Below are positions 5,810-51,350 of a stretch of DNA of 64,000 bases, piece after piece. Within the stretch, counting starts at the first letter, position 1, and each line of letters opens with the position of its first letter. Position numbers and translations under genes: made by a program. Origin of the DNA: a virus (Duplodnaviria > Caudoviricetes); the IMG/VR virus record IMGVR_UViG_3300006099_000008, positions 1,219 through 65,218 of that record. One strand, written 5' to 3'. The notes under the pieces were generated by a model. The model was not told the DNA's origin. It searched no databases and saw only the letters and a list, made by a program, of their open reading frames with translations.

Positions 5810-7444
5810 ATGGAGTTATCAGTCAGTTCCAGGCTAAAGCACGCTTGGAACGCTTTTATGAACAAAGACCCAACAAAGTATTATGGGAACATTGGAGCCG
5901 GGTATTATTACAGGCCGGACAGGCCGAGGCTTACAAGGGGAAACGAGCGTTCAATCGTTACGTCGGTTTATAACCGAATTGCGCTGGACGCGGCGGCAAT
6001 AAACATACAGCATGTTCAGCTTGATGAAAACGACAGATTTTTATCCATAGTTGAGTCCGGATTTAACAACTGCCTTACAATGGAGGCCAATATAGACCAA
6101 ACGGCAAGGGCCTTTATTCAGGACGTGGTTATGTCTATGCTGGACGAAGGGTGCGTTGCCATTATACCAATTGACACAAGCCTAAATCCCGAGGTCACAG
6201 GCTCCTATGACATACTCACCATGAGGGCGGGAAAAATAATCGAATGGCACCCGCAGCATGTGAAAGCAAGGGTTTATAACGAAAAAACAGGGAACAAAGA
6301 GGACATACTTGTGCCCAAAGGCGTGGCGGCTATTATAGAAAATCCGCTTTACGCCGTTATAAACGAGCCTAATTCCACCATGCAAAGGCTTATACGAAAG
6401 CTAAACCTTTTGGACGCGGTGGACGAGCAAAGCAGCTCCGGAAAGCTGGATTTGATTATACAGCTTCCATATGTTATCAAATCGGAGGCAAGAAGACAGC
6501 AGGCGGAAAACAGAAGACGGGAAATGGAGGATCAGCTGGCGGGATCGAAATACGGCATTGCCTATGCCGATGGTACGGAAAGAATAACACAGCTTAACCG
6601 CCCTGTTGAGAACAATCTAATGAAGCAGATTGAATACCTGACGAGTATGCTTTACAGCCAGTTGGGGATCACTCAAAGCATATTAGATGGAACAGCAGAC
6701 GACAAAACTATGTTAAACTATTACAACCGCACGATTGAGCCTATTATTTCGGCCATAGTTGACGAGATGAAGCGAAAGTTCCTCACAAAAACGGCGAGAA
6801 GCCAAAAGAAGTCTATAATGTTCTTCCGCGATCCTTTCAAGCTGGTTCCCGTTGCGGAGCTGGCGGAGATTGCCGACAAGTTTACAAGAAACGAGATTGC
6901 AACTTCAAACGAAATGAGGCAGGCCATAGGCTGGAAGCCTTCCAAGGACCCGAGCGCCGACGAGCTTAGAAACAAGAACTTAAGCGCGCCTAAGGGAGAG
7001 GAAAATGCGCCGAAGGAAAAGGAAGAAGATGAAGACGACAGCCATTTGGAGCACCATGGCATAAAGGGACAAAAATGGGGCGTTAAGAACGGGCCGCCTT
7101 ATCCGATTGGAAGCGGCGGTGAAAAAGAGGTTGCGAAAAGCGGGAAAGGTGATACAATAAAATTAACTGGGCACAAAAGTCCATCTCTACATGGAACACC
7201 CAACACCGTAGTTGACCATTTATCAGATAATGGCGATGTTAAAGCTAGAGTTTTTTATGATAATTTAGGGCACAAAATAAACGAGATACATACTTCAGAT
7301 CACGGCCGTCCTAAGTATCATGATTTTGGAGAGCATGGCGAACATGCGCACGATTACGAATGGAACGAAAATGGTGAAATGATTGATAGAAGCCCGAGAG
7401 AAATTACTTCAAATGAACGAAAGGAGAATAAAGACATATTATGA
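5810..7444 (+). CDS. portal protein with C-terminal LEH-HGIKGQKWG leader plus His-rich toxin-like domain
   Basis: About aa 1-395 is HK97-type portal-like by position and sequence; then an acidic linker, the leader at aa 413-424, and a domain homologous to 33236..33700. Confidence 0.85.
   Translation: MELSVSSRLKHAWNAFMNKDPTKYYGNIGAGYYYRPDRPRLTRGNERSIVTSVYNRIALDAAAINIQHVQLDENDRFLSIVESGFNNCLTMEANIDQTARAFIQDVVMSMLDEGCVAIIPIDTSLNPEVTGSYDILTMRAGKIIEWHPQHVKARVYNEKTGNKEDILVPKGVAAIIENPLYAVINEPNSTMQRLIRKLNLLDAVDEQSSSGKLDLIIQLPYVIKSEARRQQAENRRREMEDQLAGSKYGIAYADGTERITQLNRPVENNLMKQIEYLTSMLYSQLGITQSILDGTADDKTMLNYYNRTIEPIISAIVDEMKRKFLTKTARSQKKSIMFFRDPFKLVPVAELAEIADKFTRNEIATSNEMRQAIGWKPSKDPSADELRNKNLSAPKGEENAPKEKEEDEDDSHLEHHGIKGQKWGVKNGPPYPIGSGGEKEVAKSGKGDTIKLTGHKSPSLHGTPNTVVDHLSDNGDVKARVFYDNLGHKINEIHTSDHGRPKYHDFGEHGEHAHDYEWNENGEMIDRSPREITSNERKENKDIL
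7131..7158 (+). promoter_or_regulatory. sigmaA-like promoter embedded in the portal-toxin linker
   Basis: TTGCGA-16-TACAAT with TGn. Confidence 0.5.
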
Positions 7445-7674
7445 ATGCAGATGAATTACGTCAAGAAATATCGTATGAGTATAATGATGTGAGTTTTTAT
7501 TATAATGGCAAACCATCGGGCATTTCGCCAGAAGTTCATAATTCCATACCAACTTTTTATGTGTGGTATGGCGATGAAGAAAAAGAATATTCTGATGTAA
7601 ATAAATTGATGTCGGATAAATTCTTTGACGGAAAATCGTTGGAAGAAATTGCTGATAAGGTCGACTATTTTTAG
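7441..7674 (+). CDS. probable cognate immunity protein of the portal-fused toxin
   Basis: ATGA overlap with the portal stop; homologous to 33697..33939 (ND..F.Y.G...G.......WYG.E...Y.D.......F..GKS). Confidence 0.65.
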   Translation: MNADELRQEISYEYNDVSFYYNGKPSGISPEVHNSIPTFYVWYGDEEKEYSDVNKLMSDKFFDGKSLEEIADKVDYF

Positions 7675-7688
7675 AAAGAGGAAACTAA

Positions 7689-7901
7689 ATGACTATAGAA
7701 CAATACAGCAAGGTTATTCTAAAAGACGGAAGAACTGCTACCATTGTGGAAATTTTGGAAGATGGGGCTACCTATTTAGTCGATGTGGATTTGCCGGGCC
7801 CAGACTGGGATACTATAGAAATTTTGCAAGATGATATCAAGAGCTTTACTTCATCTATATTTTCTCCAAAAAGATTTTTAATTTGGTTGAAGACGCCATG
7901 A
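7689..7901 (+). CDS. small SH3-like (DUF4926-like) immunity-type protein
   Basis: YSKVILKDGRTATIVEI pattern, similar to 51343..51540; RBS present. Confidence 0.5.
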   Translation: MTIEQYSKVILKDGRTATIVEILEDGATYLVDVDLPGPDWDTIEILQDDIKSFTSSIFSPKRFLIWLKTP

Positions 7902-8193
7902 AAAGCGTTTGAAACATGAAAGAAAATTGCACAGGAAGAAACAAAACAAGCAAGAGCCCTCCTTTCCCAAATAGCTCTTTCCTGTTTTGCGACAGGTTAG
8001 TCATCGAAATGAGCGTAACCTAATTTCTGAATTAGTTTTTGTATTTTTCTAATTCAGATTTATTTTTGCGGCTGCTTTCCGCTTTATAAATCTTAGATTT
8101 TTTATTCATATTACCCCTCTTTCTTGTGTATTTTCTTTCACTATACATCAATAAACAAAAAAATCAAGCAAAAGTTTGAGAGGTGATCATACT

Positions 8194-8334
8194 ATGGAAG
8201 TTCCAGTGAAAATAGACGTTGTTATAAATGTAGACGAAAAGTTGGACGAAACCATTGAAAAAACAAACCGACTTATAATTGCTTTACAGGAGGCAAAAAG
8301 AATTATTAATTCATTTTCATCGGAAGCAATGTAA
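8194..8334 (+). CDS. 46-aa hypothetical protein (not in the ORF track)
   Basis: GAGAGGTG RBS; MEVPVKIDVVINVDEKLDETIEKTNRLIIALQEAKRIINSFSSEAM. Confidence 0.5.
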   Translation: MEVPVKIDVVINVDEKLDETIEKTNRLIIALQEAKRIINSFSSEAM

Positions 8335-8968
8335 AGTTAATTTTATCCAAACCGAAACGAAGGTGATAAATATTATTGATCCTAAAAAAGTGCCGGAGCT
8401 TTCTGAACAGGAAAAATGGGTATGCACAGTAAAATGGTTAAATTCGCTATACAGCGGGCATTATGCCCTGCTTAACGGAGAGTTTACAAATTTAGAGGAA
8501 TATATCGAATATGCCGAAGAAGCAGAGCCATGCTCGAATGAATGCCCATATTATGAAAAATGCCCGAGTACGGCCAGGGAGCCATACAGACCATTTGTTC
8601 CAATTCCAATAATAGAGTGTTGGAGCGGTTTACCGGCGAAGGGAGCGTTGCAGGCCCAAGGTTTCTGGCAATGGGCAATCGGCGTAAGGGCAATGCCGGC
8701 CAGAAATAATAAAATGCCAAAAATTTCAATACCAAGGAGGTCGTACATGTTTAGCGAATACAATTACACATTTGAATACAATCCTAAAATAACGCTTAAA
8801 ATTGCGGGAGAGGAAGAGGTATATAAGCTGATGCGTAAGGCTCGCGATCAATTGCAAGACTTAATGATTACTATGCAAGAACTAACAAAACAAAAACTTA
8901 CGCTTGAAGCGACAATGAATCAGCCGCCAAACAAATCAGCGGCCGAGGATATGTATGACGGTGATTAA
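8279..8968 (+). CDS. hypothetical protein (start uncertain; second in-frame RBS and ATG at 8747)
   Basis: Open frame with a Cys cluster CSNECPYYEKC; AGGAGG precedes the internal ATG 8747. Confidence 0.4.
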   Translation: MLYRRQKELLIHFHRKQCKVNFIQTETKVINIIDPKKVPELSEQEKWVCTVKWLNSLYSGHYALLNGEFTNLEEYIEYAEEAEPCSNECPYYEKCPSTAREPYRPFVPIPIIECWSGLPAKGALQAQGFWQWAIGVRAMPARNNKMPKISIPRRSYMFSEYNYTFEYNPKITLKIAGEEEVYKLMRKARDQLQDLMITMQELTKQKLTLEATMNQPPNKSAAEDMYDGD

Positions 8969-9177
8969 AGATATGGAAATAATTCCTCTTTCTTGTCATC
9001 AGGTATGCGGTAAATTTCAAAGGATCCGCCAAACATTGATGAAAGCTTTGAATCGCCTTCGAAGCTATGCGGTTTTCTACAGCCGGGGCACGTTCTGATT
9101 CCCTCGCTTGTATGATAATCCAACTGACTTTCCTTTATGGAATAGGTACACCCGCATTCACATTTTATTACAAACAT
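8965..9177 (-). CDS. small zinc-ribbon protein
   Basis: CECGC...CPGC; AAAGGAGG RBS before ATG 9177. Confidence 0.6.
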   Translation of the reverse strand: MFVIKCECGCTYSIKESQLDYHTSEGIRTCPGCRKPHSFEGDSKLSSMFGGSFEIYRIPDDKKEELFPYL

Positions 9178-9257
9178 GTTATCAATCCTCCTTTTCATTT
9201 GATTTTATCACACAGTTTAACGGAGGACAATAAAAAACCAAAGGAGGTAAATTCAAA

Positions 9258-11102
9258 ATGAAGTATGATTTCAGCGGCTGGGCCACGAGAAATAATCTCA
9301 AGTGCTCCGACGGCCGCACAATTATGAAGGACGCATTTAAGGAATGCGACGGACAAACCATACCCCTTGTTTGGAACCACCAGCACAATATTCCCGAAAA
9401 CATACTGGGGCACGCAATGCTGGAAAACCGAAACGAAGGAGTTTATGCCTACTGCAAATTTAACGAAACGGAAACGGGCCGAAACGCCAAAATGCTTGTG
9501 GAGCATGGCGACGTATCGGCTCTTTCTATTTATGCAAACCAACTGCGGCAGGAGGGCGGCAATGTTATACATGGAGCAATACGGGAGGTGAGCCTTGTTG
9601 TGGCCGGAGCCAATCCCGGGGCCTTTATAGACTCAATTATGAGCCATGGAGAGGAATCCAGCGAGGAGGCCGTTATATATACCGGCGAAGGTATAAGCCT
9701 TTATCATGCCGACAGCGCAAAACAAGAAGATAAAGGAGAAAAAGCTGAAAGCGGTAAGAGCGAAGAGAAGAAAGACGATGATAAAGATGAAACAATCGAA
9801 GACGTTTTTAACACGCTTAGCGAAAAACAAAAAAATGTTGTTTACGCCATGATAGGACAAATCATTGAAGATGACGATAAAACCGAAAAAGACAATAGCG
9901 AACCTAAGGGAGGAGATAACGACATGAAACACAACATATTCGAAAACGACGAAAAGCAGGACGACTTTCTCAGCCATGCCGACCAGGAAGGTATCATAAG
10001 CATGGCAAAATCCAACAGCGTTGGAAGCCTTCAGGCGGCAATAAGCCTTTACGCCGAAAACAACAAGGGGGTTTTGGCGCATGGAATTGACGATATAGAA
10101 TCGCTGTTCCCGGAATACAAGGACGTTCGTCCTGGAGCGCCGGAGCTTATACAGAGGGATCAGGGCTGGGTTTCAACCGTTATGCAGAAAACACACAAAA
10201 GCCCAATCAGCCGCATACGCACACGCCAGGCCGACGCAACGGGAACCGACCTTAGGGCATTTGGTTATCAGAAGGGCAAAAAGAAGCAGGTTGCCGGAAA
10301 CATTAAGCTGCTTAAAAGGACTACCGATCCGCAGACTGTTTACCGCAAGGACGCGCTGCACAGGGACGACATAATTGACATAACCGATTTCGACGTTGTG
10401 GAATACCAATATGGCATAATGCGGCAAAATCTTAACGAGGAGATCGCGACGGCCATAATGATTGGCGATGGGCGCGAGGACGGAGACGACATGAAGATCA
10501 GTGAGGATCATATCCGTTCCATATGGCATGACGACGATCTTTACACCATACATGCCGACGTGGATATCACAGCCGCGAAACGGGAGCTTCAGGGAACAAA
10601 TACGGGAGCTAATTTCGGAGAGAATTATGTGTATGCCGAGGCCATTATAACAGCGGCGCTTTACTCCCGCGAGAGATATAAGGGAAGCGGAACGCCGGAC
10701 TTCTACTGCACGCCGCATTTGCTCAACGTTATGCTGCTTGCCAGGGATTTGAACGGCCGCCGTATATATGATTCAAAGACTGATTTGGCAGCTGCGCTTA
10801 ATGTTGGGGCAATACACACTGCCGAGCAGTTTGAAGGGAAAACAAGAACAACTAAGGACAACAAGCAAAAGAAGCTGCTGGGCATATTTGTAAATCTTTC
10901 CGACTATCAGATCGGCTGCACAAAGGGCGGCGAAATTACAAGATTCAACCAGTTTGACATCGACTTCAACCAGGAGAAATATTTGATTGAGACACGCATT
11001 TCCGGCGCCCTTACGAGAATTTACTCCGCGATTGCTCTTGAGGAGGACATGACGAAAGCCACTGTTACTACGCCAGGCGAAGGAACAGAGGAAACGGAAT
11101 AA
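9258..11102 (+). CDS. prohead protease - scaffold - major capsid polyprotein
   Basis: N-terminal HK97-type protease (FSGWAT, LVWNHQH, EVSLVVAGANPGA), acidic scaffold, C-terminal capsid domain. Confidence 0.88.
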   Translation: MKYDFSGWATRNNLKCSDGRTIMKDAFKECDGQTIPLVWNHQHNIPENILGHAMLENRNEGVYAYCKFNETETGRNAKMLVEHGDVSALSIYANQLRQEGGNVIHGAIREVSLVVAGANPGAFIDSIMSHGEESSEEAVIYTGEGISLYHADSAKQEDKGEKAESGKSEEKKDDDKDETIEDVFNTLSEKQKNVVYAMIGQIIEDDDKTEKDNSEPKGGDNDMKHNIFENDEKQDDFLSHADQEGIISMAKSNSVGSLQAAISLYAENNKGVLAHGIDDIESLFPEYKDVRPGAPELIQRDQGWVSTVMQKTHKSPISRIRTRQADATGTDLRAFGYQKGKKKQVAGNIKLLKRTTDPQTVYRKDALHRDDIIDITDFDVVEYQYGIMRQNLNEEIATAIMIGDGREDGDDMKISEDHIRSIWHDDDLYTIHADVDITAAKRELQGTNTGANFGENYVYAEAIITAALYSRERYKGSGTPDFYCTPHLLNVMLLARDLNGRRIYDSKTDLAAALNVGAIHTAEQFEGKTRTTKDNKQKKLLGIFVNLSDYQIGCTKGGEITRFNQFDIDFNQEKYLIETRISGALTRIYSAIALEEDMTKATVTTPGEGTEETE

Positions 11103-11119
11103 CCGGAGAAAAATTCAAA

Positions 11120-11443
11120 ATGGCTAAATTTTACGGAGCTATAGGGTATGCGGAAACAAAAGAAACGTCGCCGGGCGTTTGGGAGGAAGAAATTACCGAA
11201 CGGGAATATTTTGGCGATTTAATAAGAAGTTCAAGAAGGCTTCAAGCCTCGGATAATCTCAACGACAATATTGTTATAAACAATGAGATAAGCATTGTAT
11301 CTGATCCATACGCATATGAAAACTTTCATGCCATGAGGTATGTTGTGTTTATGGGGGCGAAATGGAAAATTGCAAGCGTTGAGGCACAGTATCCGAGGCT
11401 TATTATAAGCATTGGTGAGGTATACAATGAGCAAAAGGGCTGA
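11120..11443 (+). CDS. head closure / head-tail adaptor
   Basis: Position after the capsid; GAKWKIASVEAQYPRLII pattern. Confidence 0.65.
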   Translation: MAKFYGAIGYAETKETSPGVWEEEITEREYFGDLIRSSRRLQASDNLNDNIVINNEISIVSDPYAYENFHAMRYVVFMGAKWKIASVEAQYPRLIISIGEVYNEQKG

Positions 11444-11732
11444 GCTGCACAAAATTCTCTGCGGCATTCTCGGAAGCGGCAACGTATATTACCAGCCGCC
11501 GGAGTCGGTTAAGATGAATTACCCGGCTATTGTATATTCAAAATTTGACATAGACAACACGTTTGCGGACAACGGCGTATACAAGCAGCTTACCTTATAC
11601 GAAGTGGCGGTTATAGACAAAAATCCGGACAGCGAAATAGTTTACAAGGTTTCGCGGCTTGAAAGCTGCCGGTACAGCAGACATTTTGTGCATGACAATT
11701 TAAACCACGATATATTTTTAATCTACTATTAA
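11427..11732 (+). CDS. tail terminator / completion protein
   Basis: NVYYQPP..KMNYPAIVY pattern; position. Confidence 0.6.
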   Translation: MSKRAELHKILCGILGSGNVYYQPPESVKMNYPAIVYSKFDIDNTFADNGVYKQLTLYEVAVIDKNPDSEIVYKVSRLESCRYSRHFVHDNLNHDIFLIYY

Positions 11733-11746
11733 GGAGGAATACGAAT

Positions 11747-12406: not shown

Positions 12407-12487
12407 TATTGCAGCGACATAGATAATAACGGCAAGAGGCGTATTTGGGTTTCCATTTGCGCCTCTTTTTTGAAAGGAGATTATTAA

Positions 12488-12850
12488 ATGGTTAAAAAGA
12501 CTATCGCTTATACAGACTACAACGGAATGGAAAGGAAAGAGGATTTTTATTTCAATCTGACAAAAGCGGAGCTTACCGAAATGCAGTTAAGCGTCGACGG
12601 AGGCTTTGACGAGAAAATAAAGCAGATAATTGACGCTAAAAACCAGCCGGAGATAATAAAGCTGTTCAAGGAAATATTGTTTAAAGCGTACGGCGAGAAA
12701 AGCCCAGACGGAAGAAGGTTTATAAAATCAGAGGAAATTTCAACGGCGTTTTCACAGACAGAGGCATATTCGATTTTGTTTATGGAGCTGGCCCAAAACG
12801 CTGAACTGGCGGCGGAATTTATAAACGGAATACTTCCGAAAAACGAATAA
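12488..12850 (+). CDS. tail assembly chaperone
   Basis: Position after the tail tube gene; YTDYNG.ER.EDFYFNL pattern. Confidence 0.7.
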   Translation: MVKKTIAYTDYNGMERKEDFYFNLTKAELTEMQLSVDGGFDEKIKQIIDAKNQPEIIKLFKEILFKAYGEKSPDGRRFIKSEEISTAFSQTEAYSILFMELAQNAELAAEFINGILPKNE

Positions 12851-12868
12851 CCGAAAGAGCTGATTAGA

Positions 12869-13411: not shown

Positions 13412-13415
13412 GAGC

Positions 13416-30284: not shown

Positions 30285-31193
30285 ATGAATTTAGCAGAAT
30301 TGACAGATGAGTATTTATTTGACTGTGAATGCAGGAAGCTATCTAAGAAAACGGTGGAAAATTACAGGAAACAAATTGGATATTTGCTGCAATATCTGAA
30401 AGAGGAATGCAGCGTTACAGACATAGAAGAGATTAAGACCCGGCACATAAAACAGTATTTGCTGGCGAAGCAAAAGGCGGGGAACAAGCCTAATTATATT
30501 AACGACTTGCTCAAGGTTTATAAAACCATGTTCCGATATTTTTATAATGAAGGATATACGGAAACTTTGATTACCGAAAAAATACATAACGTTAAAAAGG
30601 AAAAGGTTATCATCAGAACTTTTACAAAAGAAAATGTAAAAGCCATGATAAATTTTTATAGTGGAAATGATTTTTTAAGTATACGAAATAAAACTATTAT
30701 GATTGTTTTGTTTGACACAGGTATTCGATTGTCGGAATTGCTTAATTTGAAAACCATTGATTTAAAGGAAGACTATATCATTGTTGTAAACGGAAAGGGA
30801 GGGAAAGACAGAGTTGTTCCCAAGAGCCCGTTCCTTTCAAAATGGCTTTTCAAGTATCAAAGCATAAGAAGAAGTTATTTTATAGACAGATATTTGGATA
30901 ACAAAGAGTTGTTTTTGAGCAAAAACTGTAAAAGGCTATCTCGTGAAATGGTGGAGAGGATTGTAAAAGATGTTGGAAAATTTGCCGGGGTATCTAAAGA
31001 GGTAAGAGTTTCGCCACATACTTGCAGGCATACATATGCGCAGATGCAGTTGAAAAACGGCCTAAATATATACAGCTTAAGCAGACTGTTAGGGCATGAA
31101 AATATATCTATTACACAAACATATTTGAACGGGATAAGAGACGAACAAGTTTTGATAGAAGGAAGGATATCAAGTCCGCTTATGAATTTATAG
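30285..31193 (+). CDS. int: tyrosine integrase / recombinase
   Basis: DTGIRLSEL (R), GKGGKDR (K), HTCRH (H-x-x-R), LGHENISITQTY (H, Y). Confidence 0.93.
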   Translation: MNLAELTDEYLFDCECRKLSKKTVENYRKQIGYLLQYLKEECSVTDIEEIKTRHIKQYLLAKQKAGNKPNYINDLLKVYKTMFRYFYNEGYTETLITEKIHNVKKEKVIIRTFTKENVKAMINFYSGNDFLSIRNKTIMIVLFDTGIRLSELLNLKTIDLKEDYIIVVNGKGGKDRVVPKSPFLSKWLFKYQSIRRSYFIDRYLDNKELFLSKNCKRLSREMVERIVKDVGKFAGVSKEVRVSPHTCRHTYAQMQLKNGLNIYSLSRLLGHENISITQTYLNGIRDEQVLIEGRISSPLMNL

Positions 31194-32957: not shown

Positions 32958-33113
32958 ATGAAAGAAAAATTTATGGAGATTGTTTCGGTAATGGGCATTT
33001 TGGGTGTAATTATTATTGCATATCGCCAAGGGCGCATTGACGAACAAAGTCAGGTAATAAGAAATCTTGAAATCGTTTATGAAGAACTTGAAAGAGCGAA
33101 AAAAGAGTCCTAA
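32958..33113 (+). CDS. small TM protein (cassette)
   Basis: Motif at 32903, AGGAGG RBS, IVSVMGILGVIIIAY; the stop lies in the hairpin loop. Confidence 0.6.
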   Translation: MKEKFMEIVSVMGILGVIIIAYRQGRIDEQSQVIRNLEIVYEELERAKKES

Positions 33114-33131
33114 CAAGGGCTCTTTCTTTTT
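33104..33131 (+). terminator. cassette terminator, identical to 36647..36674
   Basis: agagtcctaacaagggctctttct followed by T. Confidence 0.7.
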
Positions 33132-33235: not shown

Positions 33236-33700
33236 ATGCAATTGCGACAATGGCTATACTACTATTGCCTTGAAATTCTAAGGTCTAAAGAGCTTTGTCA
33301 TTATGGCGTGAAAGGCATGAAGTGGGGCGTTAAAAGGACGCCGGAGGAGTTGGGGCGTAAAAGAGAAACTGCTATATCAGTTGAAAAAACAAATAGAGGT
33401 GGTATAATTAAGAAAACTTTTTACGGACATGTGAAGTCGCCAAGACAGGCAGAGCCTAACGCAATTATAGACTATATTTCTCATGAGGGAAAAGTTAATA
33501 AAAGAAGTTATTATGGTCCAGATGGATTCAAAATTAAAGATATTCATACTACGGATCACAAAAACCCCAAAGAACACCCTTATGGAAAAACGGGGGAACA
33601 TGCGCATGATTATACGTGGAATACAGACGGAACCCCGAAAAATAAAACGATAAGAGAACTTACAGAAAAGGAGAGAAAGGAGAATAGCGATATATTATGA
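33236..33700 (+). CDS. LCH-YGVKGMKWG leader plus His-rich toxin-like domain
   Basis: GGAAGGAGG RBS; the domain is homologous to the portal tail (IHT.DH..PK.H..G..GEHAHDY.WN..G...RE.T..ERKEN.DIL). Confidence 0.75.
   Translation: MQLRQWLYYYCLEILRSKELCHYGVKGMKWGVKRTPEELGRKRETAISVEKTNRGGIIKKTFYGHVKSPRQAEPNAIIDYISHEGKVNKRSYYGPDGFKIKDIHTTDHKNPKEHPYGKTGEHAHDYTWNTDGTPKNKTIRELTEKERKENSDIL
33381..33408 (+). promoter_or_regulatory. sigmaA-like promoter embedded in the toxin linker
   Basis: TTGAAA-16-TATAAT with TGn. Confidence 0.55.
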
Positions 33701-33939
33701 CTATAAGATATTTAAAAGATGCAGTAAAAGAGGGAAACGACTTTTACTTTCATTACAAGGGTGAAAACGCTGGTGTAGAATCTGCCGTCAAAGATTCTGT
33801 CGTGAAATATGAAGCTTGGTATGGTGAGGAAATAAGGCAATATGATGACTTTGACGATGTATTGAACGATAGATTTTATTGCGGAAAATCAATTTTAGAA
33901 TTATTAGCAAAAAATATTATAGAAATTAATTTTTCATAA
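33697..33939 (+). CDS. probable cognate immunity protein
   Basis: ATGA overlap; homologue of 7441..7674. Confidence 0.65.
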   Translation: MTIRYLKDAVKEGNDFYFHYKGENAGVESAVKDSVVKYEAWYGEEIRQYDDFDDVLNDRFYCGKSILELLAKNIIEINFS

Positions 33940-33999: not shown

Positions 34000-34158
34000 A
34001 TGAAAGTTAAATGGAAAGGAAAAACTGATTTTTTAATCTTAACGCATGACAAAATATATACAGTTCTTTCGATAGAGAAGGACTGGTATAGATTAGTTGA
34101 TGATAGCGGAGAAGATTATTTATATTCGCCCGAAAAGTTTGAAGTGATTGAAAACTAA
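34000..34158 (+). CDS. 52-aa orphan immunity-like protein (not in the ORF track)
   Basis: MKVKWKGKTDFLILTHDKIYTVLSIEKDWYRLVDDSGEDYLYSPEKFEVIEN aligns with the C-terminal domain of 135..1236. Confidence 0.65.
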   Translation: MKVKWKGKTDFLILTHDKIYTVLSIEKDWYRLVDDSGEDYLYSPEKFEVIEN

Positions 34159-34183: not shown

Positions 34184-34684
34184 GTGAAGCAAAATACTTT
34201 ACAGACACCATTTGGAACTGTAACTATTTACAAAAATGGTAAGAAAATAGATTTTACAGCAGAAATCTTTGATGAGAGTGTGTGCTTGGAAGATAATACA
34301 ATAAAAAAGCCTGAGGGTTCTTATAAGCTCAATTTTGATACAACAGAACTAAAAGCCGGAGATATTATAATTTGCAAATTTAATGCCGGAAGTCTGCAAT
34401 GCGATGGTGGAAGTGAATCAACAATTAATATTGTTGGTACCTATAAAGGATATACAATTGGAATGGGAACTTATTGTACACAGGAAATTGATTATGAGAA
34501 AAAATTTTTACCTTATGAAACTTATGAATATAGAAAAAGAGGTTTTGAAGCACATATTCTTGATGATTTCCAAAACTATCCCCACATTAAAAGTCTTTTA
34601 AATATTTATTTTGTGGTTGCATGGGAGAAGGGCACTGCTGACGATGAGTGGGATCTGGTTTCATACATAACGAGTCAATATTAA
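34184..34684 (+). CDS. hypothetical protein in the toxin-immunity cluster
   Basis: ORF track; AT-rich; TATAAT directly upstream. Confidence 0.5.
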   Translation: MKQNTLQTPFGTVTIYKNGKKIDFTAEIFDESVCLEDNTIKKPEGSYKLNFDTTELKAGDIIICKFNAGSLQCDGGSESTINIVGTYKGYTIGMGTYCTQEIDYEKKFLPYETYEYRKRGFEAHILDDFQNYPHIKSLLNIYFVVAWEKGTADDEWDLVSYITSQY

Positions 34685-34730: not shown

Positions 34731-34961
34731 ATGACAGTGACGATAAGTAAAAGACTTGAAGGAGAAAAAGTAAAGTTAATTAATTATGACAATGATGTGT
34801 TTATTGGTGTAGTTGGGGATTATATTTATCCAGAAGATAATAAACCTGAAGGAATTGACGCGATTATTCTTGATTATCCTATTAAAAACGGCAGTTATAA
34901 ATATAATAATCCTGTCGCATTCAATTCTCCAGACATCAAATCCATAGAAATAATTCAATAA
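34731..34961 (+). CDS. small orphan immunity-like protein
   Basis: AAGGAG RBS; small acidic beta-rich pattern (GVVGDYIYPEDN.PEGIDAIILD); context. Confidence 0.45.
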   Translation: MTVTISKRLEGEKVKLINYDNDVFIGVVGDYIYPEDNKPEGIDAIILDYPIKNGSYKYNNPVAFNSPDIKSIEIIQ

Positions 34962-35019
34962 CGCGCGTACCCGTAGATTTAAAAATCTGTGGGTATTTTT
35001 TATTTTAGGAGATGGTCAA

Positions 35020-43298: not shown

Positions 43299-43309
43299 AT
43301 GGAGGCAAT

Positions 43310-43858: not shown

Positions 43859-43879
43859 AAGGAGGCGAATAAAATTGCA

Positions 43880-46800
43880 ATGATTGACTTTTTAATGATT
43901 GCAACGCGCAGTACAAAGCGCGGCATAATAGAAGTCTATCCAAAGTTTATTATCAAAAAAAGCTCTGATCTGATGATTAGGGGTGGTGATTTTTATGCCA
44001 TATGGATTGAAGAACGGGGCTTATGGTCTACCGACGAACAAGACGCTTTACAGATAATAGATAGTGAGCTTGATAAATATGCGGAAGAAAACCGGCTGAG
44101 CTTTAGCTCTGATATTAGAGTGCTGCACATGTGGGACGCCGAATCAGGCATGATTGACTCGTGGCATAAATATTGTCAGAAGCAATTGAGAGATTCATTT
44201 CATGCGCTTGACGATAAACTTATATTTTCTAATATGAAAACTAATAAAAAAGACTACGCCAGCAAAAGGTTGAACTATCCACTGGAAGCTGGCGATTTGT
44301 CTGCCTATGATAAGCTCATGTCAACTTTATATTCGGAGGAAGAACGACATAAAATTGAATGGGCAATTGGTTCCATTGTTTCTGGAGACTCTAAAAAATT
44401 ACAGAAATTCATGGTTTTTTATGGCGCGGCCGGAACGGGAAAGTCTACAGTAATAAATATCATTCAACAGTTATTTGACGGATATTACTCGGTGTTTGAC
44501 GCAAAGAATCTCGGCTCATCTAATAATTCATTTGCATTAGAAGCGTTCAGAGGCAATCCGCTTGTGGCAATTCAGCATGACGGAGACTTGTCCCGAATTG
44601 AAGACAATACAAGGCTTAACAGCTTGGTTTCCCACGAGTTGATGACTGTGAATGAAAAATTTAAGTCTACGTATTCCAACCGGTTTAAATGCTTTTTGTT
44701 CATGGGAACAAATAAACCGGTAAAGATTACGGACGCAAAATCGGGTCTTATACGAAGGCTGATTGACGTTACGCCGTCTGGAAATAAATTAAATCCAAAG
44801 GAATACAAAGCAACCGTAAAACAAATTAGTTTTGAGCTTGGTGCAATAGCTTATCATTGCAGGGAAGTATATTTGAATGATCCAGGTAAATATGACAATT
44901 ATATTCCTATAGCAATGCTTGGGGCTTCTAATGATTTTTACAATTTTGTGATGGACTCTTACCACGTGTTCAAGAAGGAAGACGGCACAAGCTTAGAAGC
45001 CGCTTGGAAGATGTATAATGCTTATTGTGAAGAGGCGAAGGTTAAAGTTCCGTTTCAAAAGAGGATTTTTAAAGAGGAGCTTAAGAATTACTTTAGTGAT
45101 TGTCAAAGACGCATTAGTTTGAATGACGGCTCCAGGGTGAGAAGCTATTACACAGGATTCCGGTTTGATAAATTTGGAGAAAATATAATTGGAGAAACAG
45201 AGGGAAAAGAGGAAAGCGGCGTTCAATGGCTTCAATTTAGCAGTACAGATTCTCTATTTGATTTAAAATGCGGAAGCTGTGCCGCGCAATATGCTACAGC
45301 TAAAGAAACGCCGCTAAAAAAATGGAGCGATGTTAAGACAAAATTGGCGGAACTGGATACGTCGAAAGTTCACTATGTCAGGGTTCCTGAAAATCACATT
45401 GTGATAGATTTCGATGTTACAGACGAAAACGGAAATAAATCTCTTGAGAAAAATATTGAGGAAGCCAATAAGTGGCCGGAAACTTATGCGGAGCTTAGCA
45501 AAAGCGGAAATGGAATACATCTTCATTATATTTATACAGGCGACGTTTCTAAACTAAGTCGTGTGTATGACGACAGCATAGAAGTTAAGATATTTACGGG
45601 CAACAGTTCCTTGAGACGAAAACTATCCAAATGCAATAATTTACCTATTGCGACAATAAGCTCCGGTTTGCCGCTGAAAGGAGAAAATAAAATGGTGAAT
45701 TTTGAAGCGATAAAGAGCGAGAAAGGGCTTAGAACGCTGATTAAACGTAATTTGAATAAAGAAATACACCCGGCCACTAAGCCCAGCGTTGACTTTATTT
45801 ATAAAATATTGGAAGATGCATATTCAAGCGGGCTGAATTATGATGTTACGGATATGCGCAACGCTGTATTGGCATTTGCGGCAAACAGCACGCATCAGGC
45901 CGACTACTGTATTAAGCTTGTAAATAAAATGCAGTTTAAGTCGCCGGATATATCAGCAGCGAAGAAAAACGATGACGCTAAATTAGTATTTTATGACGTT
46001 GAGGTATTTCCGAACTTATTTCTTGTAAACTGGAAAATCGAAGGCGAAGGCAAGCCGGTTGTGCGTATGATTAATCCGTCTCCAAACGAAATTGAGGATA
46101 TAATGCGCTTTAGGCTGGTTGGTTTTAACTGCCGCAGATATGACAATCATATTTTGTACGCAAGAATGATTGGCTATACAAACGAACAGCTATATAATCT
46201 TTCTCAGAAAATTATAAATGGGAGCGCTAACTGTTTCTTTGGTGAAGCTTACAATGTTTCTTATACGGACGTATATGATTTTTCCAGCAAAAAGCAATCT
46301 CTTAAAAAATTTGAGATTGAGCTTGGTATTCATCATCAGGAGCTGGGGCTTCCATGGGATCAGCCAGTGCCTGAAGAAATGTGGACAAAGGTGGCCGAAT
46401 ACTGTGACAACGATGTCATCGCAACGGAGGCGGTATTTAGCAATAGAAAGGCTGATTTTACTGCAAGACAGATACTGGCCGATGTGGCTGGAATGACAGT
46501 AAATGATACCACAAATACTCTTACCACAAGAATTATATTTGGAGGAAATAAGAAGCCTCAATCTCAGTTTAATTATCGTGATATGGGAGATATTTCGCTT
46601 AAACACCACACCGGAAATAACTTATATGATCCTGAATTTACAATATTTACAGAAGAAAATAAGCCGATATTCCCGGGATATGTGTTTGAAAACGGAAAAT
46701 CAATATACAGGGGCGAAGAGGTTGGGGAAGGCGGATATGTATATTCTGAACCCGGCATGTACAGCAATATTGCGTTGCTGGATATAGCTTCCATGCACCC

Positions 46801-47836
46801 CAGCAGTATTGTTGCTGAGAATTTGTTCGGAGATGAATACACGCAAAGATTCAAAGAAATTCTTGATGCACGTATTGCCATTAAACATAAGGATTTTGAT
46901 AAGGCGCGAAGTATGCTTGGCGGAGCCTTGGCAAAATATTTGACAGATGAGGAGGCGGCCGCTGATTTGGCGCAGGCTTTGAAAATTGCCATTAATTCGG
47001 TTTACGGTTTGACGTCAGCTAATTTCGAAAATCCATTTCGTGACAATCGCAACAAAGACAATATTGTCGCAAAACGTGGGGCGCTTTTTATGATAAATCT
47101 CAGGCATGAAGTTCAAAGCCGAGGCTTTACTGTTGCCCACATTAAAACCGACTCGATTAAAATTCCAAATGCTACACCGGAGATTATCCAGTTTGTTATG
47201 GATTACGGAAAAGAGTACGGCTACACATTTGAACATGAAGCTACGTATGACAGAATGTGCCTTGTCAACGATGCCGTTTACATTGCCAAGTATAAAGACG
47301 GTAAACATGCCGGCGAATGGACAGCAACGGGAACTCAGTTTCAGGTTCCTTATGTATTCAAGAAATTATTTAGTGGTGAAGAAATTATATTTGAGGATAT
47401 GTGCGAAACCAAATCAGTCAGCAGCGCTTTGTATCTTGACATGAACGAGGGTCTTCCTGATGTATCGGAATATGAAAAGGAATTGACGAAAGCCGAGAAC
47501 GACTACAAAAAAGGTCTGTTGTCTGATATATCTTTTGAACAAATATGTTCTAATGTATCAAAGGAGATTGAAAAAGGTCACAGCTATCGCTTTATCGGAA
47601 AAGTCGGTCGGTTTTGTCCGATCAAAGAAGGCTGCGGCGGGGGTTTACTTATGCGCGAGAAAGACGGAAAGTATTATGCCGCAACCGGTTCAAAGGGATA
47701 TAGATGGCGAGAGGCTGAAATGGTTAGGGAGTTAGGAAAGGAAAGTGATATAGACAGATCATATTACAACAAACTTGTTGATGAAGCCGTCGAAACTATA
47801 TCGCAGTATGGAGACTTTGAATGGTTTGTTTCGTAA
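43880..47836 (+). CDS. fused SF3 helicase - AEP primase - 3'-5' exonuclease - family B DNA polymerase
   Basis: GAAGTGKST Walker A; IDFD and SKSGNGIHLHY primase motifs; FYDVE, GFN..YD and YCDNDV exonuclease motifs; DIASMHPS, KIAINSVYG and HIKTDS polymerase motifs. Confidence 0.85.
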   Translation: MIDFLMIATRSTKRGIIEVYPKFIIKKSSDLMIRGGDFYAIWIEERGLWSTDEQDALQIIDSELDKYAEENRLSFSSDIRVLHMWDAESGMIDSWHKYCQKQLRDSFHALDDKLIFSNMKTNKKDYASKRLNYPLEAGDLSAYDKLMSTLYSEEERHKIEWAIGSIVSGDSKKLQKFMVFYGAAGTGKSTVINIIQQLFDGYYSVFDAKNLGSSNNSFALEAFRGNPLVAIQHDGDLSRIEDNTRLNSLVSHELMTVNEKFKSTYSNRFKCFLFMGTNKPVKITDAKSGLIRRLIDVTPSGNKLNPKEYKATVKQISFELGAIAYHCREVYLNDPGKYDNYIPIAMLGASNDFYNFVMDSYHVFKKEDGTSLEAAWKMYNAYCEEAKVKVPFQKRIFKEELKNYFSDCQRRISLNDGSRVRSYYTGFRFDKFGENIIGETEGKEESGVQWLQFSSTDSLFDLKCGSCAAQYATAKETPLKKWSDVKTKLAELDTSKVHYVRVPENHIVIDFDVTDENGNKSLEKNIEEANKWPETYAELSKSGNGIHLHYIYTGDVSKLSRVYDDSIEVKIFTGNSSLRRKLSKCNNLPIATISSGLPLKGENKMVNFEAIKSEKGLRTLIKRNLNKEIHPATKPSVDFIYKILEDAYSSGLNYDVTDMRNAVLAFAANSTHQADYCIKLVNKMQFKSPDISAAKKNDDAKLVFYDVEVFPNLFLVNWKIEGEGKPVVRMINPSPNEIEDIMRFRLVGFNCRRYDNHILYARMIGYTNEQLYNLSQKIINGSANCFFGEAYNVSYTDVYDFSSKKQSLKKFEIELGIHHQELGLPWDQPVPEEMWTKVAEYCDNDVIATEAVFSNRKADFTARQILADVAGMTVNDTTNTLTTRIIFGGNKKPQSQFNYRDMGDISLKHHTGNNLYDPEFTIFTEENKPIFPGYVFENGKSIYRGEEVGEGGYVYSEPGMYSNIALLDIASMHPSSIVAENLFGDEYTQRFKEILDARIAIKHKDFDKARSMLGGALAKYLTDEEAAADLAQALKIAINSVYGLTSANFENPFRDNRNKDNIVAKRGALFMINLRHEVQSRGFTVAHIKTDSIKIPNATPEIIQFVMDYGKEYGYTFEHEATYDRMCLVNDAVYIAKYKDGKHAGEWTATGTQFQVPYVFKKLFSGEEIIFEDMCETKSVSSALYLDMNEGLPDVSEYEKELTKAENDYKKGLLSDISFEQICSNVSKEIEKGHSYRFIGKVGRFCPIKEGCGGGLLMREKDGKYYAATGSKGYRWREAEMVRELGKESDIDRSYYNKLVDEAVETISQYGDFEWFVS

Positions 47837-47889
47837 AATTTAACCCAACAAGGTCTCTTTATTTATTTTATTAGAAGGGAGAATTTACC

Positions 47890-48372
47890 ATGCCTTACAA
47901 CAATATTAATAACATTATCATCGAAAACGCTCATATAATTTTTAGGAATTTCAGAGGCGAAGAATCTAAGTACAACAGAGCTGGCAGCCGGAATTTTTGC
48001 GTGATTATTGAAGACAGCGAGGAAGCTCAAAGGCTGGCCGAAGACGGCTGGAATATAAGAATACTGGCGCCGAGAGACGAAAACGATGAACCTAGACATT
48101 ATATTCAGGTTGCCGTAAGCTTTTCGAATATTCCGCCGAAAGTTTATATGATAACAAGAAAGGTTAAAACCGCTCTTGACGAAGAGTCAATTGGAACGCT
48201 GGATTTTGCGGAGATTAGAAACGTCGATTTAACAATACGCCCATATAATTGGGAAGTAAACGGAAAAACCGGGGTTAAGGCTTATTTGAAAACAATGTAC
48301 GTTACCATCGAAGAAGATGAATTTGCGGCTAAGTATGCCGAACAGGAAGGCCCTGAAGAGATTCCGTTTTAA
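47890..48372 (+). CDS. ssb: single-stranded DNA-binding protein
   Basis: FRNFRG..YN..G.RNF OB-fold pattern with acidic tail ending EEIPF. Confidence 0.75.
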
Positions 48373-48447
48373 GAAGGACAAGGCAGAAAGCTCTGATTAT
48401 TATTCATGATAATTGGAGCTTTTTTTTATTTAGAAAAGGAGAAAATT

Positions 48448-49173
48448 ATGAAAAAAGATTGTCAAAAAGAATTTATGAAAATTTTTAATCAGCTTGCTTA
48501 TAAGTATAACCGATACGATGTTTGGAGAGATTTTGTTACAACTTTTGCCTGTTCTATCTCAAATTCTTTAGATAAATGTCACTATGAAGAAAGAGAGAAA
48601 CGTTACTTAAAAATTATCGGAAAGTATGAAAAAACAGAGCAAAATATATTTCCGGAACTTGCTGCTCGAACTGTCATAGCCTTGGAAGAAAATCAAGATC
48701 AGGATTTTTTGGGTGATATTTTTATGATGCTTAACCTTGGGAACAATGTGACTGGACAATTTTTTACGCCATATCATATTTGCAGGCTTATGGCTATGAC
48801 TACATTGGGTAATATTTGTAAACAAATTAGAGAAAAAGGTTTTGTAACTATAAATGATCCTTGCTGCGGTGCCGGAGCAATTTTAATAGCGGCAATTAAT
48901 GAAGCGCGAAAACAACTGAAAAAAGAAAATCTCAACTTTCAGAATAGCATATTTTTGGCGGCTCAGGATATAGATGAAACCGTAGTTCTTATGTGTTATA
49001 TTCAGCTATCTCTCCTGGGCATAGCTTGATTTGTAAAGGTTGGAAGTTCGCTATTTGATCCGATTATACAGAACGATAAATTAGATAATTATTGGTTTAC
49101 GCCTATGTATTTTTCTGATATTTGGGTTATGAGAAGAATTTTTGACGAGGTGACGTCTATTGGCCGGAATTGA
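48448..49173 (+). pseudogene. N6-methyltransferase-like gene interrupted by an in-frame TGA at 49027
   Basis: GQFFTPYHI, DPCCGAG, AQDID motifs; the same frame continues FVKVGSSL..WFTPMYF to TGA 49171-49173. Confidence 0.6.
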
Positions 49174-50392
49174 ACTATATGATTACCAATTAGAAGCTGT
49201 GAAAAAAATGAAAAGCGGCTGTATACTTTGCGGAGGAGTGGGAAGTGGAAAATCACGAACGGCGTTAGCGTATTATTATATTTGCGAAGGAGGAAGCCTG
49301 GGAACGGAAAATTACACGACAATGAATGATCCGCCAAAAGATTTATACATAATTACAACAGCGAGAAAACGTGATACTTTGGAGTGGGAGGGAGAACTTT
49401 CGCCCTTCCTTCTTTCTACGAACAAAGAAGTTAATTTATATTTTAATAACGTGGTTGTTGACTCATGGAACAACATTGGAAAATATACGGATATTAAAAA
49501 GGCATTCTTTATATTCGATGAACAGCGGGTTATTGGCTCTGGAGCCTGGGTAAAGTCTTTCCTTAAAATATGTAAATCTAACCATTGGATTTTACTTTCG
49601 GCTACTCCGGGAGACACTTGGCAGGATTATATTCCTGTGTTTCTGGCAAATGGCTTTTATAAGAATAGAAGCGAATTTACAAGGGAACATATCGTTTACA
49701 GCCGCTTCAGCAAATTTCCTAAAGTCGAAAGATATTTGAACACCGGGCGTTTAATACGTTTGCGAAATTCTATTTTAGTTGATATGGACTTTAACCGGAA
49801 AACAATATCCCACCATGAAGATATTTTTGTAGGATATGACACTGATAAATATAAAAAAATCACTAAAAACCGTTGGGATATTTGGAAAGATTGTCCGATT
49901 ACTAACGCCGGAGAACTCTGCTATGCGCTGCGCAAGGCGGTTAATTCAGACGAATCAAGATTAGTGGCTGCTATGGAGATTTTTGAAAAGCGTCACAAAA
50001 TTATTATATTCTATAATTTCGATTACGAATTAGAGTTGCTTAAAAGCGCCTGCTGGCCATTTGACGGCATTAATATTGTAGAAGTTGCCGAATGGAATGG
50101 TCACAAACATCAGCCGGTACCTGATGGGAACTGCTGGATATATTTAGTTCAATACAACGCCGGCGCCGAAGGGTGGAACTGTGTTAAGACTGATACAATT
50201 ATATTTTACTCACAGAACTACAGCTATAAAATTATGGCGCAAGCTTCCGGAAGAATAGACAGGCTTAATACGCCGTATACAGATTTATATTATTATCATT
50301 TAAAAAGCAGAGCCGGTATCGATCTTGCTATTGGAAAAGCGTTGTCTGCTAAAAAGAATTTTAATGAGGGGAGGTTTGTGAGATGGGATTGA
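49160..50392 (+). CDS. SF2 (SNF2-like) helicase
   Basis: GSGKS, FDEQ, LSATP, AGAEGWN, QASGRIDR motifs. Confidence 0.85.
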   Translation: MAGIELYDYQLEAVKKMKSGCILCGGVGSGKSRTALAYYYICEGGSLGTENYTTMNDPPKDLYIITTARKRDTLEWEGELSPFLLSTNKEVNLYFNNVVVDSWNNIGKYTDIKKAFFIFDEQRVIGSGAWVKSFLKICKSNHWILLSATPGDTWQDYIPVFLANGFYKNRSEFTREHIVYSRFSKFPKVERYLNTGRLIRLRNSILVDMDFNRKTISHHEDIFVGYDTDKYKKITKNRWDIWKDCPITNAGELCYALRKAVNSDESRLVAAMEIFEKRHKIIIFYNFDYELELLKSACWPFDGINIVEVAEWNGHKHQPVPDGNCWIYLVQYNAGAEGWNCVKTDTIIFYSQNYSYKIMAQASGRIDRLNTPYTDLYYYHLKSRAGIDLAIGKALSAKKNFNEGRFVRWD

Positions 50393-50429
50393 TTTTTGGC
50401 TCCTTATTTTCATCTTCAAAAGACTTTTA

Positions 50430-50456
50430 CGCAAAAAACACATAGACTTTTATGAG
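50430..50456 (+). promoter_or_regulatory. phage-specific motif copy 11
   Basis: cgcaaaaaac acatagactt ttatgag. Confidence 0.75.
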
Positions 50457-50492
50457 GAATGTAATAAAGTGTTTTAAAGAAGGAGGAATAAT

Positions 50493-50744
50493 ATGATTGA
50501 TTTAAAACTATTATCGGAAGTGCCAGACGACCAGTTAGAGGTTATTGAAAAAAGCATAGCAGCATGGATAAGAGCAGGCAAACCAAAAATATTGGGATTA
50601 ACGGTAGAAGCGAATACCAATGAGACAATCGCAGTATTTGCCTTAATTGCTGTTGCTTCAGTAGCATGGGGATTTGCAACTGGTTATATTTCTGATAGAT
50701 TTGTAGAACGTCATAGAAGGATCAAAAGAAATACAAAAGCATGA
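50493..50744 (+). CDS. small TM protein (cassette)
   Basis: Motif at 50430, AAGGAGG RBS, hairpin after the stop. Confidence 0.6.
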   Translation: MIDLKLLSEVPDDQLEVIEKSIAAWIRAGKPKILGLTVEANTNETIAVFALIAVASVAWGFATGYISDRFVERHRRIKRNTKA

Positions 50745-50864
50745 GACCAAGAATTGAGCCAGGTAATGGCTCTTTTCTTTTTTTATATGTAGATTAATGA
50801 AAGATGTTTCAGGAGGTGAACTAAAATAGAAATAAATAGCAAAGATATTATAAAAAGAGCAAAT

Positions 50865-51350
50865 ATGATAAAGAAATTTTATTTAGATATAGATAATCCA
50901 AAGGGAGGATTATATCATTATGGCGTTAAAGGTATGAAGTGGGGTGTTAGGAGGACGCCAGAACAGTTGGGGCATTTAAAATGTACAGTTGATAAATCAA
51001 AAGAACATAGTATAATGTCAAATGAGACCGTGTTAAGCAAGAAAGGCTTTATGATAAATGGCAGTAAAATTGTTGATTTTTTATTGAAACCAAAGGCTAA
51101 GCATTCACATGAATTTTTTAATGTTGGCTATACACCACAAGACAGCAGGAGGCTTTTTGAAGACATAGAGAAAGGCTATGATTTATCAAAGGCCACCGAT
51201 GTTGTCAAAATAAACGATATAGAAAAGTTTAGCATTTTTATGAATTTGGGAATAACTTCAAAAAGGCCTTTTAGAACAGTATGGCAAATTGATGGGCAAA
51301 ATTCAAAACCAAGATTAATCACAGCTCATAGGGAGGATAAAAATGTTTAA
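50865..51350 (+). CDS. LYH-YGVKGMKWG leader plus DUF6883-like toxin domain
   Basis: Leader, then KIVDFLL...KHSHEFF.VGY and FRTVWQID...PRLITAH. Confidence 0.7.
   Translation: MIKKFYLDIDNPKGGLYHYGVKGMKWGVRRTPEQLGHLKCTVDKSKEHSIMSNETVLSKKGFMINGSKIVDFLLKPKAKHSHEFFNVGYTPQDSRRLFEDIEKGYDLSKATDVVKINDIEKFSIFMNLGITSKRPFRTVWQIDGQNSKPRLITAHREDKNV
50989..51016 (+). promoter_or_regulatory. sigmaA-like promoter embedded in the toxin linker
   Basis: TTGATA-16-TATAAT. Confidence 0.55.

Follow-up and report, generated by a model that had tools for sequence, protein, structure and literature searches.

Putative host-type promoters encoded at the leader-toxin junctions of phage polymorphic toxin genes

Introduction

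Firmicute prophages often carry polymorphic toxins of the MuF type, yet the means and timing of toxin and antidote expression have so far been left unaddressed. The DNA analyzed here raises the question in a concrete form: how might an immunity gene that lies behind a phage toxin gene be transcribed while the toxin itself stays silent? The stretch comprises 64,000 nucleotides (nt), corresponding to bases 1219-65218 of a complete 65-kb viral record (IMGVR_UViG_3300006099_000008), and is referred to below as the window. We focused on a promoter-like sequence found in the codons that join the leader to the toxin domain in three of its toxin genes. An earlier note on this DNA had suggested that these codons double as promoters, allowing immunity to be made without toxin. 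Comparison with homologues lends support to this dual-coding reading, and the junction sites are probably host sigma-A promoters that yield immunity without toxin.

Results

Three toxin genes share a promoter-like site in one codon register

The three toxin genes of the window and their junction sites, together with the predicted transcription starts, are as follows.

5810-7444 (+): portal protein with a DUF7211 leader (about 7028-7087) and a His-rich toxin domain; Pfam Phage_portal and DUF7211, C-terminal domain homologous to tox33k.
7131-7158 (+): putative internal promoter P1; -35 TTGCGA at 7131-7136, 16-nt spacer, TG at 7150-7151 (TGa), -10 TACAAT at 7153-7158; predicted start at about 7164-7167.
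33236-33700 (+): tox33k, a stand-alone DUF7211 leader with a His-rich toxin domain; likely start ATG 33236, preceded by GGAAGGAGG.
33381-33408 (+): putative internal promoter P2; TTGAAA, 16 nt, TGg TATAAT, with 11 of 12 consensus matches plus TG; predicted start at about 33414-33417.
50865-51350 (+): tox50k, a DUF7211 leader with a DUF6883-like tip.
50989-51016 (+): putative internal promoter P3; TTGATA, 16 nt, TATAAT, with 11 of 12 consensus matches and no TG; predicted start at about 51022-51025.

All three sites (7131-7158, 33381-33408 and 50989-51016) were found exactly where the earlier note had placed them, each with the form TTGnnA-16-TAYAAT, and the TGn extension that it had reported for two of the three is present at 7131 and 33381. 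The encoded peptides VAKSGKGDTI, VEKTNRGGII and VDKSKEHSIM were also given correctly. The sites share a single codon register, gTT Gnn Aaa ... nnT AnA ATn, in which the site starts at codon position 2. The statement that all three complete toxin genes carry the site holds for the three genes of the window, but a fourth complete toxin gene lies just upstream of it. This gene (943-1356 of the genome, G000) has a weaker site, TTGCGG-16-TATAAA, in the same register. No such site was found in the DUF7211 gene at 3030-3503, which has no toxin tip.

The pattern TTGNNA-N16-TAYAAT occurs 4 times on both strands of the window, compared with 0.78 expected from shuffled sequence, and none of 100 shuffles reached 4 matches. 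On the + strand, the only matches in the 64 kb are the three junction sites. Among the 613 sigma-70-like sites of the window on either strand, 33381 ranks 2nd and 50989 ranks about 6th; the junction sites score on par with the best intergenic sites of the phage, such as 37840 (-) upstream of a helix-turn-helix (HTH) gene. Given the encoded peptides and the codon usage of the phage, the chance of finding each site is 0.10, 0.03 and 0.06, respectively, with a joint chance of 1.8e-4. Of the features characteristic of an extended -10 sigma-70/sigma-A promoter, a -35 near TTGACA, a spacer within the range of 16-18 nt and the -10 hexamer TAnAAT are present at all three sites and TGn at two.

The best intergenic sigma-70-like sites of the window are two sites on the minus strand. 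The first, at 1792 (-), reads TTGATA-17-TGn-TATAAT and lies upstream of a minus-strand gene of 51 amino acids that adjoins a Fic-domain gene. The second, 37840 (-), reads TTGACT-17-TATAAT; the gene behind it encodes 116 amino acids with a weak HTH match and is a candidate repressor.

The junction is conserved at the level of DNA

Viral leaders were gathered from public viral contigs by degenerate leader-only patterns and never by the promoter, and a second homologue set was drawn from bacterial genomes. For the viral set, the motif was defined as TTGNNN-16..18-TANNNT located 15-90 nt after the leader. As a null model, each sequence was synonymously recoded with the codon usage of its own contig. 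The motif was present in 31 of 117 non-redundant viral homologues, compared with 6.85 expected after synonymous recoding, and in 34 of 55 prophage copies from Lachnospiraceae, Ruminococcus, Blautia and Oscillospiraceae genomes. The background in the same loci was 0.56 sites per kb, or 0.05 per kb when TG was included. The motif was retained in contigs with a G+C content of 54-59%.

Inspection of the bases for which the sites had not been selected revealed the signature of an extended -10 element. In 27 sites aligned on TTG, position -15 was T in 25 and position -14 was G in 26, and AA occupied positions 4 and 5 of the -10 in 24. The required TTG was followed by A or C, then by A (19/27) and by a further A (26/27). 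The spacer was nearly information-free.

The third codon positions were then compared with codon-usage expectation in 38 sites of at most 80% nucleotide identity. The T of TGn was present in 30 of the 38 sites (14.6 expected; P 7e-9), A at position 4 of the -10 in 32 (14.1 expected; P 9e-11) and A at position 5 of the -35 in 21 (9.4 expected; P 2e-7); the homologues share ancestry, so that these P values overstate independence and are to be taken as upper bounds on significance, a point that weighs against the promoter reading. Three third positions within the spacer matched codon-usage expectation. The encoded residues vary around the fixed bases. Codon 1 specifies V, L or I and is always nTT. 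Codon 8 mostly specifies D, G, A or V, is GnT in 31 of 38 sites and ends in T in all of them, and codon 9 mostly specifies T, K, I or R and is AnA in 32 of 38. The earlier note had proposed synonymous constraint at the hexamers in homologues as a check on its model. The outcome is strongly positive, both in the excess over recoding and in the skewed third positions.

Some toxin families carry a variant in which TTG is itself a Leu codon (TTG AAA; frame 0) and the spacer is 17 nt, and the variant can occur even inside one family. Homologue spacers are 16 nt in frame 1 and 17 nt in frame 0. The geometry of a promoter is preserved despite the change of register. Taken together, the comparisons point to selection acting on the junction DNA as a promoter.

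It could be argued that the stretch is conserved only as a peptide feature, such as a head protease cleavage site or a docking strand, and that its likeness to a promoter comes from AT-rich codon use. The peptide pattern [VLI]-[DEA]-K-x4-[DG]-[TKI]-I does recur, and the frame-0 and frame-1 variants have equal numbers of codons. Moreover, the linkers are Lys rich, which raises the chance rate; recoding shows that the loose motif arises from the peptide alone in 3-50% per sequence, and this also counts against a promoter. However, the synonymous third positions are fixed at the promoter-critical bases and not in the spacer, chemically unlike residues share the same bases, and the TG dinucleotide straddles two codons. 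The motif also co-occurs with a downstream terminator and immunity gene and is kept with MuF carriers that have no DUF7211 (see below). We therefore regard a peptide-only explanation as very improbable.

The motif accompanies immunity-like genes and downstream terminators

DUF7211 proteins whose C termini are of other kinds, with no toxin tip, do not have the motif; in an unselected sample, 5 of 162 carried it. Genes that bear it have about 130 residues after the leader, and a gene of 45-200 amino acids is located at the toxin stop in 93 of 95 motif-bearing genes, compared with 43 of 130 motif-less genes. In about 90 motif loci, there was no sense-strand terminator 0-500 nt after the -35. Terminators were enriched 500-1000 nt downstream, with 33 calls in 91 loci and then 15 in 90 in successive 250-nt bins, compared with 1-6% per bin elsewhere. 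The layout that the earlier note's model leads one to expect (an immunity-like gene at the toxin stop, a terminator after it and none before) thus holds in homologues. As with an internal immunity promoter, the site lies within the toxin frame, the neighboring gene is on the same strand and no terminator separates the two.

Of 97 genes that bear the motif, none has an ATG in frame and with a ribosome site 12-160 nt beyond the -10; ordinary initiation on the internal transcript should therefore yield no toxin.

One homologous locus (L312, 1560-2321, equivalent to viral L225) has a toxin gene that is frameshifted directly past the junction. It retains a near-perfect promoter sequence, TTGACA-16-TGa-TACAAT, and an intact downstream small gene. 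The shifted toxin frame begins with an ATG located 9 nt past the -10; this may reflect either a leaderless mRNA or a decayed gene.

The sites might be real promoters and yet give rise to both immunity and a toxin domain devoid of its leader; the two would then form an addiction or toxin-antitoxin module of the kind shown for the Salmonella Rhs C-terminal domains. Rhs offers a precedent, with internal promoters and a non-ATG start (PMC7043789). In tox50k, an ATG (M63) opens the DUF6883 match and has GAAAGG 4 nt upstream, and the frameshifted toxin of L312 has its ATG 9 nt after the -10. Against this stand the 0/97 count given above and the window's His-rich toxins, which have no in-frame ATG until their last residues. 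Expression of a leaderless toxin is, in our judgment, unlikely.

Predicted transcription units at the three loci

The remaining features of the three loci are listed below.

7441-7674 (+): candidate immunity gene, 77 amino acids; its ATG overlaps the toxin stop (ATGA).
7689-7901 (+): second small gene of the P1 unit; weak DUF4926 match.
8026-8058 (+): AT-rich 10-bp hairpin with a U-rich run that may act as a weak terminator for the P1 unit; folding energy -12.5 kcal/mol, z -3.1.
33102-33125 (+): intrinsic terminator directly upstream of tox33k.
33697-33939 (+): immunity-like gene; ATGA overlap with the tox33k stop.
34000-34158, 34184-34684 and 34731-34961 (+): three further small genes of the P2 unit.
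34967-34996 (+): intrinsic terminator ending the P2 unit.
50756-50772 (+): intrinsic terminator directly upstream of tox50k.
51343-51540 (+): small gene of the P3 unit; strong, well-spaced AGGGAGG ribosome site in front.
51606-51923 (+): second small gene of the P3 unit.
52299-52323 (+): intrinsic terminator ending the P3 unit.

The position homologous to P1 is conserved in relatives, and homologues of the small gene at 7441-7674 follow the same toxin domain in MuF toxins. A search of the whole window with Rfam identified no RNA family; the untranslated stretch of 300 nt hence contains no riboswitch or leader of a known type. A host-type promoter and an intrinsic terminator around non-core genes, the features by which morons are recognized, are found from P2 to 34967-34996, from P3 to 52299-52323 and in a relative (L166) in which a promoter-terminator cassette lies between the terminase and portal genes. 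P1 has the weak hairpin only.

Two further observations concern these units. A promoter-like site, TTGAAA-16-TAAAAT, is located at 51532-51559, at the end of the small gene 51343-51540 and before 51606-51923; it may be the relic junction promoter of an orphan immunity gene. In addition, a Lys-rich reading frame of 39 amino acids (8032-8151, minus strand) lies in the gap between the hairpin at 8026-8058 and the next + strand genes.

The same junction motif occurs on other carriers

A search with the toxin domain alone revealed fusions of this domain to proteins of the MuF1 (PF04233) and MuF2 (PF06152) types in which DUF7211 is absent. In these, TTGAAA-16-TGn-TATAAT is found at the MuF-toxin junction, and a homologous small gene is located at the stop. 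Of 6 close hits in 401 sampled Lachnospiraceae genomes, 5 carried the motif; more distant toxin-domain hits in Lachnospiraceae genomes were without it. The motif is also present in cultured temperate phages, namely Streptococcus pneumoniae phage Spn1 (TTGATA-16-TGg-TATAAT) and Streptococcus suis phage phi891591 (TTGTAA-16-TGc-TATAAT). The junction motif of Clostridioides difficile phiCDKH02 is weak, and none was seen in a Paenibacillus larvae phage, whose "toxin" has a distantly related form of the domain. Because the same motif recurs in MuF carriers, Lachnospiraceae genomes and cultured phages, the promoter appears to belong to the toxin-immunity cassette and not to a particular carrier. On this comparison the motif is best described as a family-wide element, and the "all three" of the earlier note understates the case.

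The recurrence across carriers could instead mean that the conserved DNA is a homology patch for cassette recombination, its likeness to a promoter being secondary. The site lies exactly where paralogue similarity ends and is common to portal, MuF and stand-alone carriers, as such a patch would be. However, conservation is limited to scattered consensus bases, with free variation across the 16-nt spacer, a pattern that makes a poor substrate for homologous recombination, and the 16- and 17-nt variants preserve promoter geometry rather than sequence identity. We consider a recombination patch an improbable explanation.

The phage and its polymorphic toxin genes

The window encodes a tyrosine integrase (30285-31193), which indicates a temperate phage. 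The phage also encodes a large DNA polymerase and a single-chain two-barrel RNA polymerase (60741-63494; PHROG 4291). Its closest terminases are from phages of human feces, and relatives of the toxin leaders are found in prophages of gut Clostridia (Lachnospiraceae, Ruminococcus, Blautia and Oscillospiraceae). No match to cultured phages was obtained in a megablast search with the portal-toxin region. A second promoter-like motif, CGC-N7-ACA-N7-TTATG, is present in 17 copies (at most 1 mismatch; window 5343-59838), 16 of them on the + strand, compared with 1.3 expected. The copies lie mostly ahead of genes, and the motif is a candidate promoter for the phage's own RNA polymerase. With a polymerase and a promoter motif of its own in the phage, a host-type promoter would provide a distinct channel of expression.

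The DUF7211 motif (25 residues, HYGVKGMKWGV) occurs in five copies in the genome. The first forms the C-terminal end of the portal protein (5810-7444) and is followed by the His-rich domain; the second leads the stand-alone gene 33236-33700, with the same His-rich domain as the portal fusion; and the third leads 50865-51350, with the unrelated DUF6883-like tip. The fourth, just upstream of the window in the fourth toxin gene (G000 943-1356, L002), leads a DUF4258 tip, behind which are four tandem paralogous small genes (window 135-1472). The fifth is in the gene at 3030-3503, which has no toxin-like tip. One type of leader is therefore found on three unrelated tips (His-rich, DUF6883-like and DUF4258).

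The His-rich domain is structurally like the C termini of MuF, PT-HINT/Ntox24 and LXG polymorphic toxins, and each toxin gene is followed by small genes whose starts overlap or abut the toxin stop. These genes appear to constitute a phage-borne polymorphic toxin system, with the toxin and immunity labels derived from architecture and structural likeness. A MuF domain (PF04233 or PF06152) was not found in the three toxin genes of the window, which have the portal domain or DUF7211 alone. By analogy, the toxins of the window would act like MuF toxins, yet strictly they fall outside the MuF family.

Other viral contigs (L012, L045 and L107 among them) carry up to 6-8 DUF7211 leaders each, with many unrelated C termini. 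A Lys/Ser-rich composition or a membrane-like segment is common among these C termini. Instead of being specific to toxins, the leader looks like a tag for virion packaging or ejection in general.

Discussion

Proposed mechanism

We propose that each site would function as a host sigma-A (sigma-70 family) extended -10 promoter with the consensus TTG[A/C]AA-16/17-TGnTAnAAT. The promoter would be embedded in the approximately 10 codons between the toxin domain and the part that targets it to the virion, whether a DUF7211 leader, a portal or MuF. Initiation by host RNA polymerase would be expected about 7 nt past the -10, a point that already lies within the toxin domain and beyond both the toxin start codon and its ribosome site. 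The transcript would comprise about 300 nt of untranslated toxin-coding RNA, followed by the immunity gene or genes at the toxin stop, and would end at the intrinsic terminator. Full-length toxin would need transcription from upstream, which for the portal fusion would come from the late operon. Such a moron-like unit would yield immunity without toxin at any time when host polymerase alone works on the phage DNA, and could operate while late transcription of the phage is off, either in the lysogen or in the first minutes after infection. Both the use of the sites by the polymerase and this timing are what we infer from the arrangement.

The promoter could serve mainly in those first minutes, with host polymerase making immunity against co-injected toxin and the prophage not being the main setting. 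In favor of this, the toxins are attached to, or preceded by, components associated with the virion (portal, MuF, DUF7211), other genes of the phage are served by an RNA polymerase that it encodes itself, and the MuF literature proposes toxin delivery at injection (PMC5576092). On the other hand, prophage genes are classically expressed from promoter-terminator units of this moron-like kind (criteria as quoted in PMC5567305), and sequence cannot separate early expression from expression in the lysogen; both may hold. A role mainly in early infection is possible, although we think it the less likely setting.

Several further points weigh against immunity-only promoters at the junctions. The -10 of the fourth toxin gene (TATAAA) does not have the key last T, the spacer of 16 nt falls short of the optimum of 17, and P3 has no TGn. 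At the end of the P1 unit, the hairpin at 8026-8058 was not called by a strict terminator scan, making for a weak terminator. The placement of a terminator immediately before the toxin gene, seen at tox33k and tox50k, is not general, being present in 2 of 95 loci. Between these upstream terminators and the starts of tox33k and tox50k, no host- or phage-type promoter was seen, including no copy of CGC-N7-ACA-N7-TTATG; our guess is that the stand-alone toxins are transcribed by read-through of the phage polymerase. Lastly, in the portal and tox33k loci the sole Shine-Dalgarno-like sequence is an AAGGAG 14 nt before the immunity ATG that overlaps the toxin stop. Translation of immunity may rely in part on ribosomes finishing the toxin frame, which would be missing on the internal transcript, and may be inefficient there.

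The His-rich toxins end in a conserved ERKE(N/S)xDIL tail, found from gut to Streptococcus phages (7415-7444 and 33670-33700 in the window; L404 and L407). Its codons spell the AAGGAG (AAGGAA in some) 14 nt before the immunity ATG, and the ATG itself lies within the DIL codons. This tail may be a second dual-coding element.

Implications

A conserved junction promoter would give a silent prophage the means to protect its host from the toxin of related virions. In the wider picture that we put forward tentatively, and which is quite possible, the ten-codon junction would act at once as peptide linker, as host promoter and as the 5' limit of a mobile cassette. The cassette would move among portal, MuF and DUF7211 carriers across Firmicute phages, from those of gut Clostridia to pneumococcal prophages, and would keep lysogens constitutively immune to the toxin of sibling virions, making the phages kin-discriminating weapons. 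Searching phage genomes for the sequence of the junction promoter would also be a simple way to locate toxin-immunity cassettes and to mark where they begin at the 5' side. It would be a natural case of dual coding in which promoter bases constrain codon choice and even amino acid choice. The presence of the element in cultured pneumococcal and S. suis phages provides tractable test systems.

Comparison with known systems

Among the closest published counterparts are the MuF polymorphic toxins, for which injection with the DNA and protection of lysogens by immunity have been proposed (Jamet et al. 2017, PMC5576092); our mechanism would fit this idea. Both groups have a conserved virion-associated N terminus, a variable C-terminal toxin and a downstream immunity gene, and both occur in temperate Firmicute phages. 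Unlike the MuF toxins, the carriers in the window are a portal protein and a short DUF7211 leader. Neither "promoter" nor "transcri" occurs in the MuF paper (PMC5576092).

The units also resemble prophage morons (criteria quoted in PMC5567305), which consist of a gene between a sigma-70 promoter and an intrinsic terminator and are autonomously transcribed, in having a host-type promoter upstream, an intrinsic terminator downstream and accessory genes set in a phage operon. Moron promoters are intergenic, whereas the phage promoter described here would lie in the coding sequence of the gene before, with expression confined to the second gene of the toxin-immunity pair. The internal promoters of Salmonella rhs have been shown experimentally (PMC7043789). 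There, as proposed here, RNA synthesis begins within the toxin gene, shortly before the part that encodes the C-terminal toxin domain, and the transcript spans the immunity gene. The internal rhs transcript also yields toxin, from a non-ATG start, whereas no in-frame ATG with a ribosome site follows the phage promoter.

Literature searches for DUF7211 returned no papers, and those for internal promoters or start sites in MuF or prophage toxins returned nothing specific; searches of PneumoBrowse 2 and for Spn1 yielded no start sites for a prophage of this type. Mechanisms of this kind are known, but a defined, conserved promoter set in frame at the junction of virion-associated phage toxins seems not to have been described in the literature searched.

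Colicin operons have a constitutive immunity promoter inside the colicin gene, although our literature search gave no citable source for it. Colicins are plasmid-borne bacteriocins of enterobacteria, and the immunity promoter lies within the toxin gene, as proposed here. We know of no conserved in-frame junction element in colicin operons.

The type VI secretion system of Vibrio cholerae provides a further parallel. Internal immunity promoters have been shown experimentally for vasX/tsiV2, tseL/tsiV1 and vgrG-3/tsiV3, and cells are immune while the weapon is silent (PMC3857813). There, as proposed for the phage, a promoter within the effector frame drives the downstream immunity gene independently of the operon promoter. 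Reporter fusions revealed the V. cholerae promoters, which share no defined conserved sequence. The phage element, by contrast, appears to be a defined, family-wide, in-frame extended -10 promoter placed at the domain junction of virion-associated toxins of Firmicutes.

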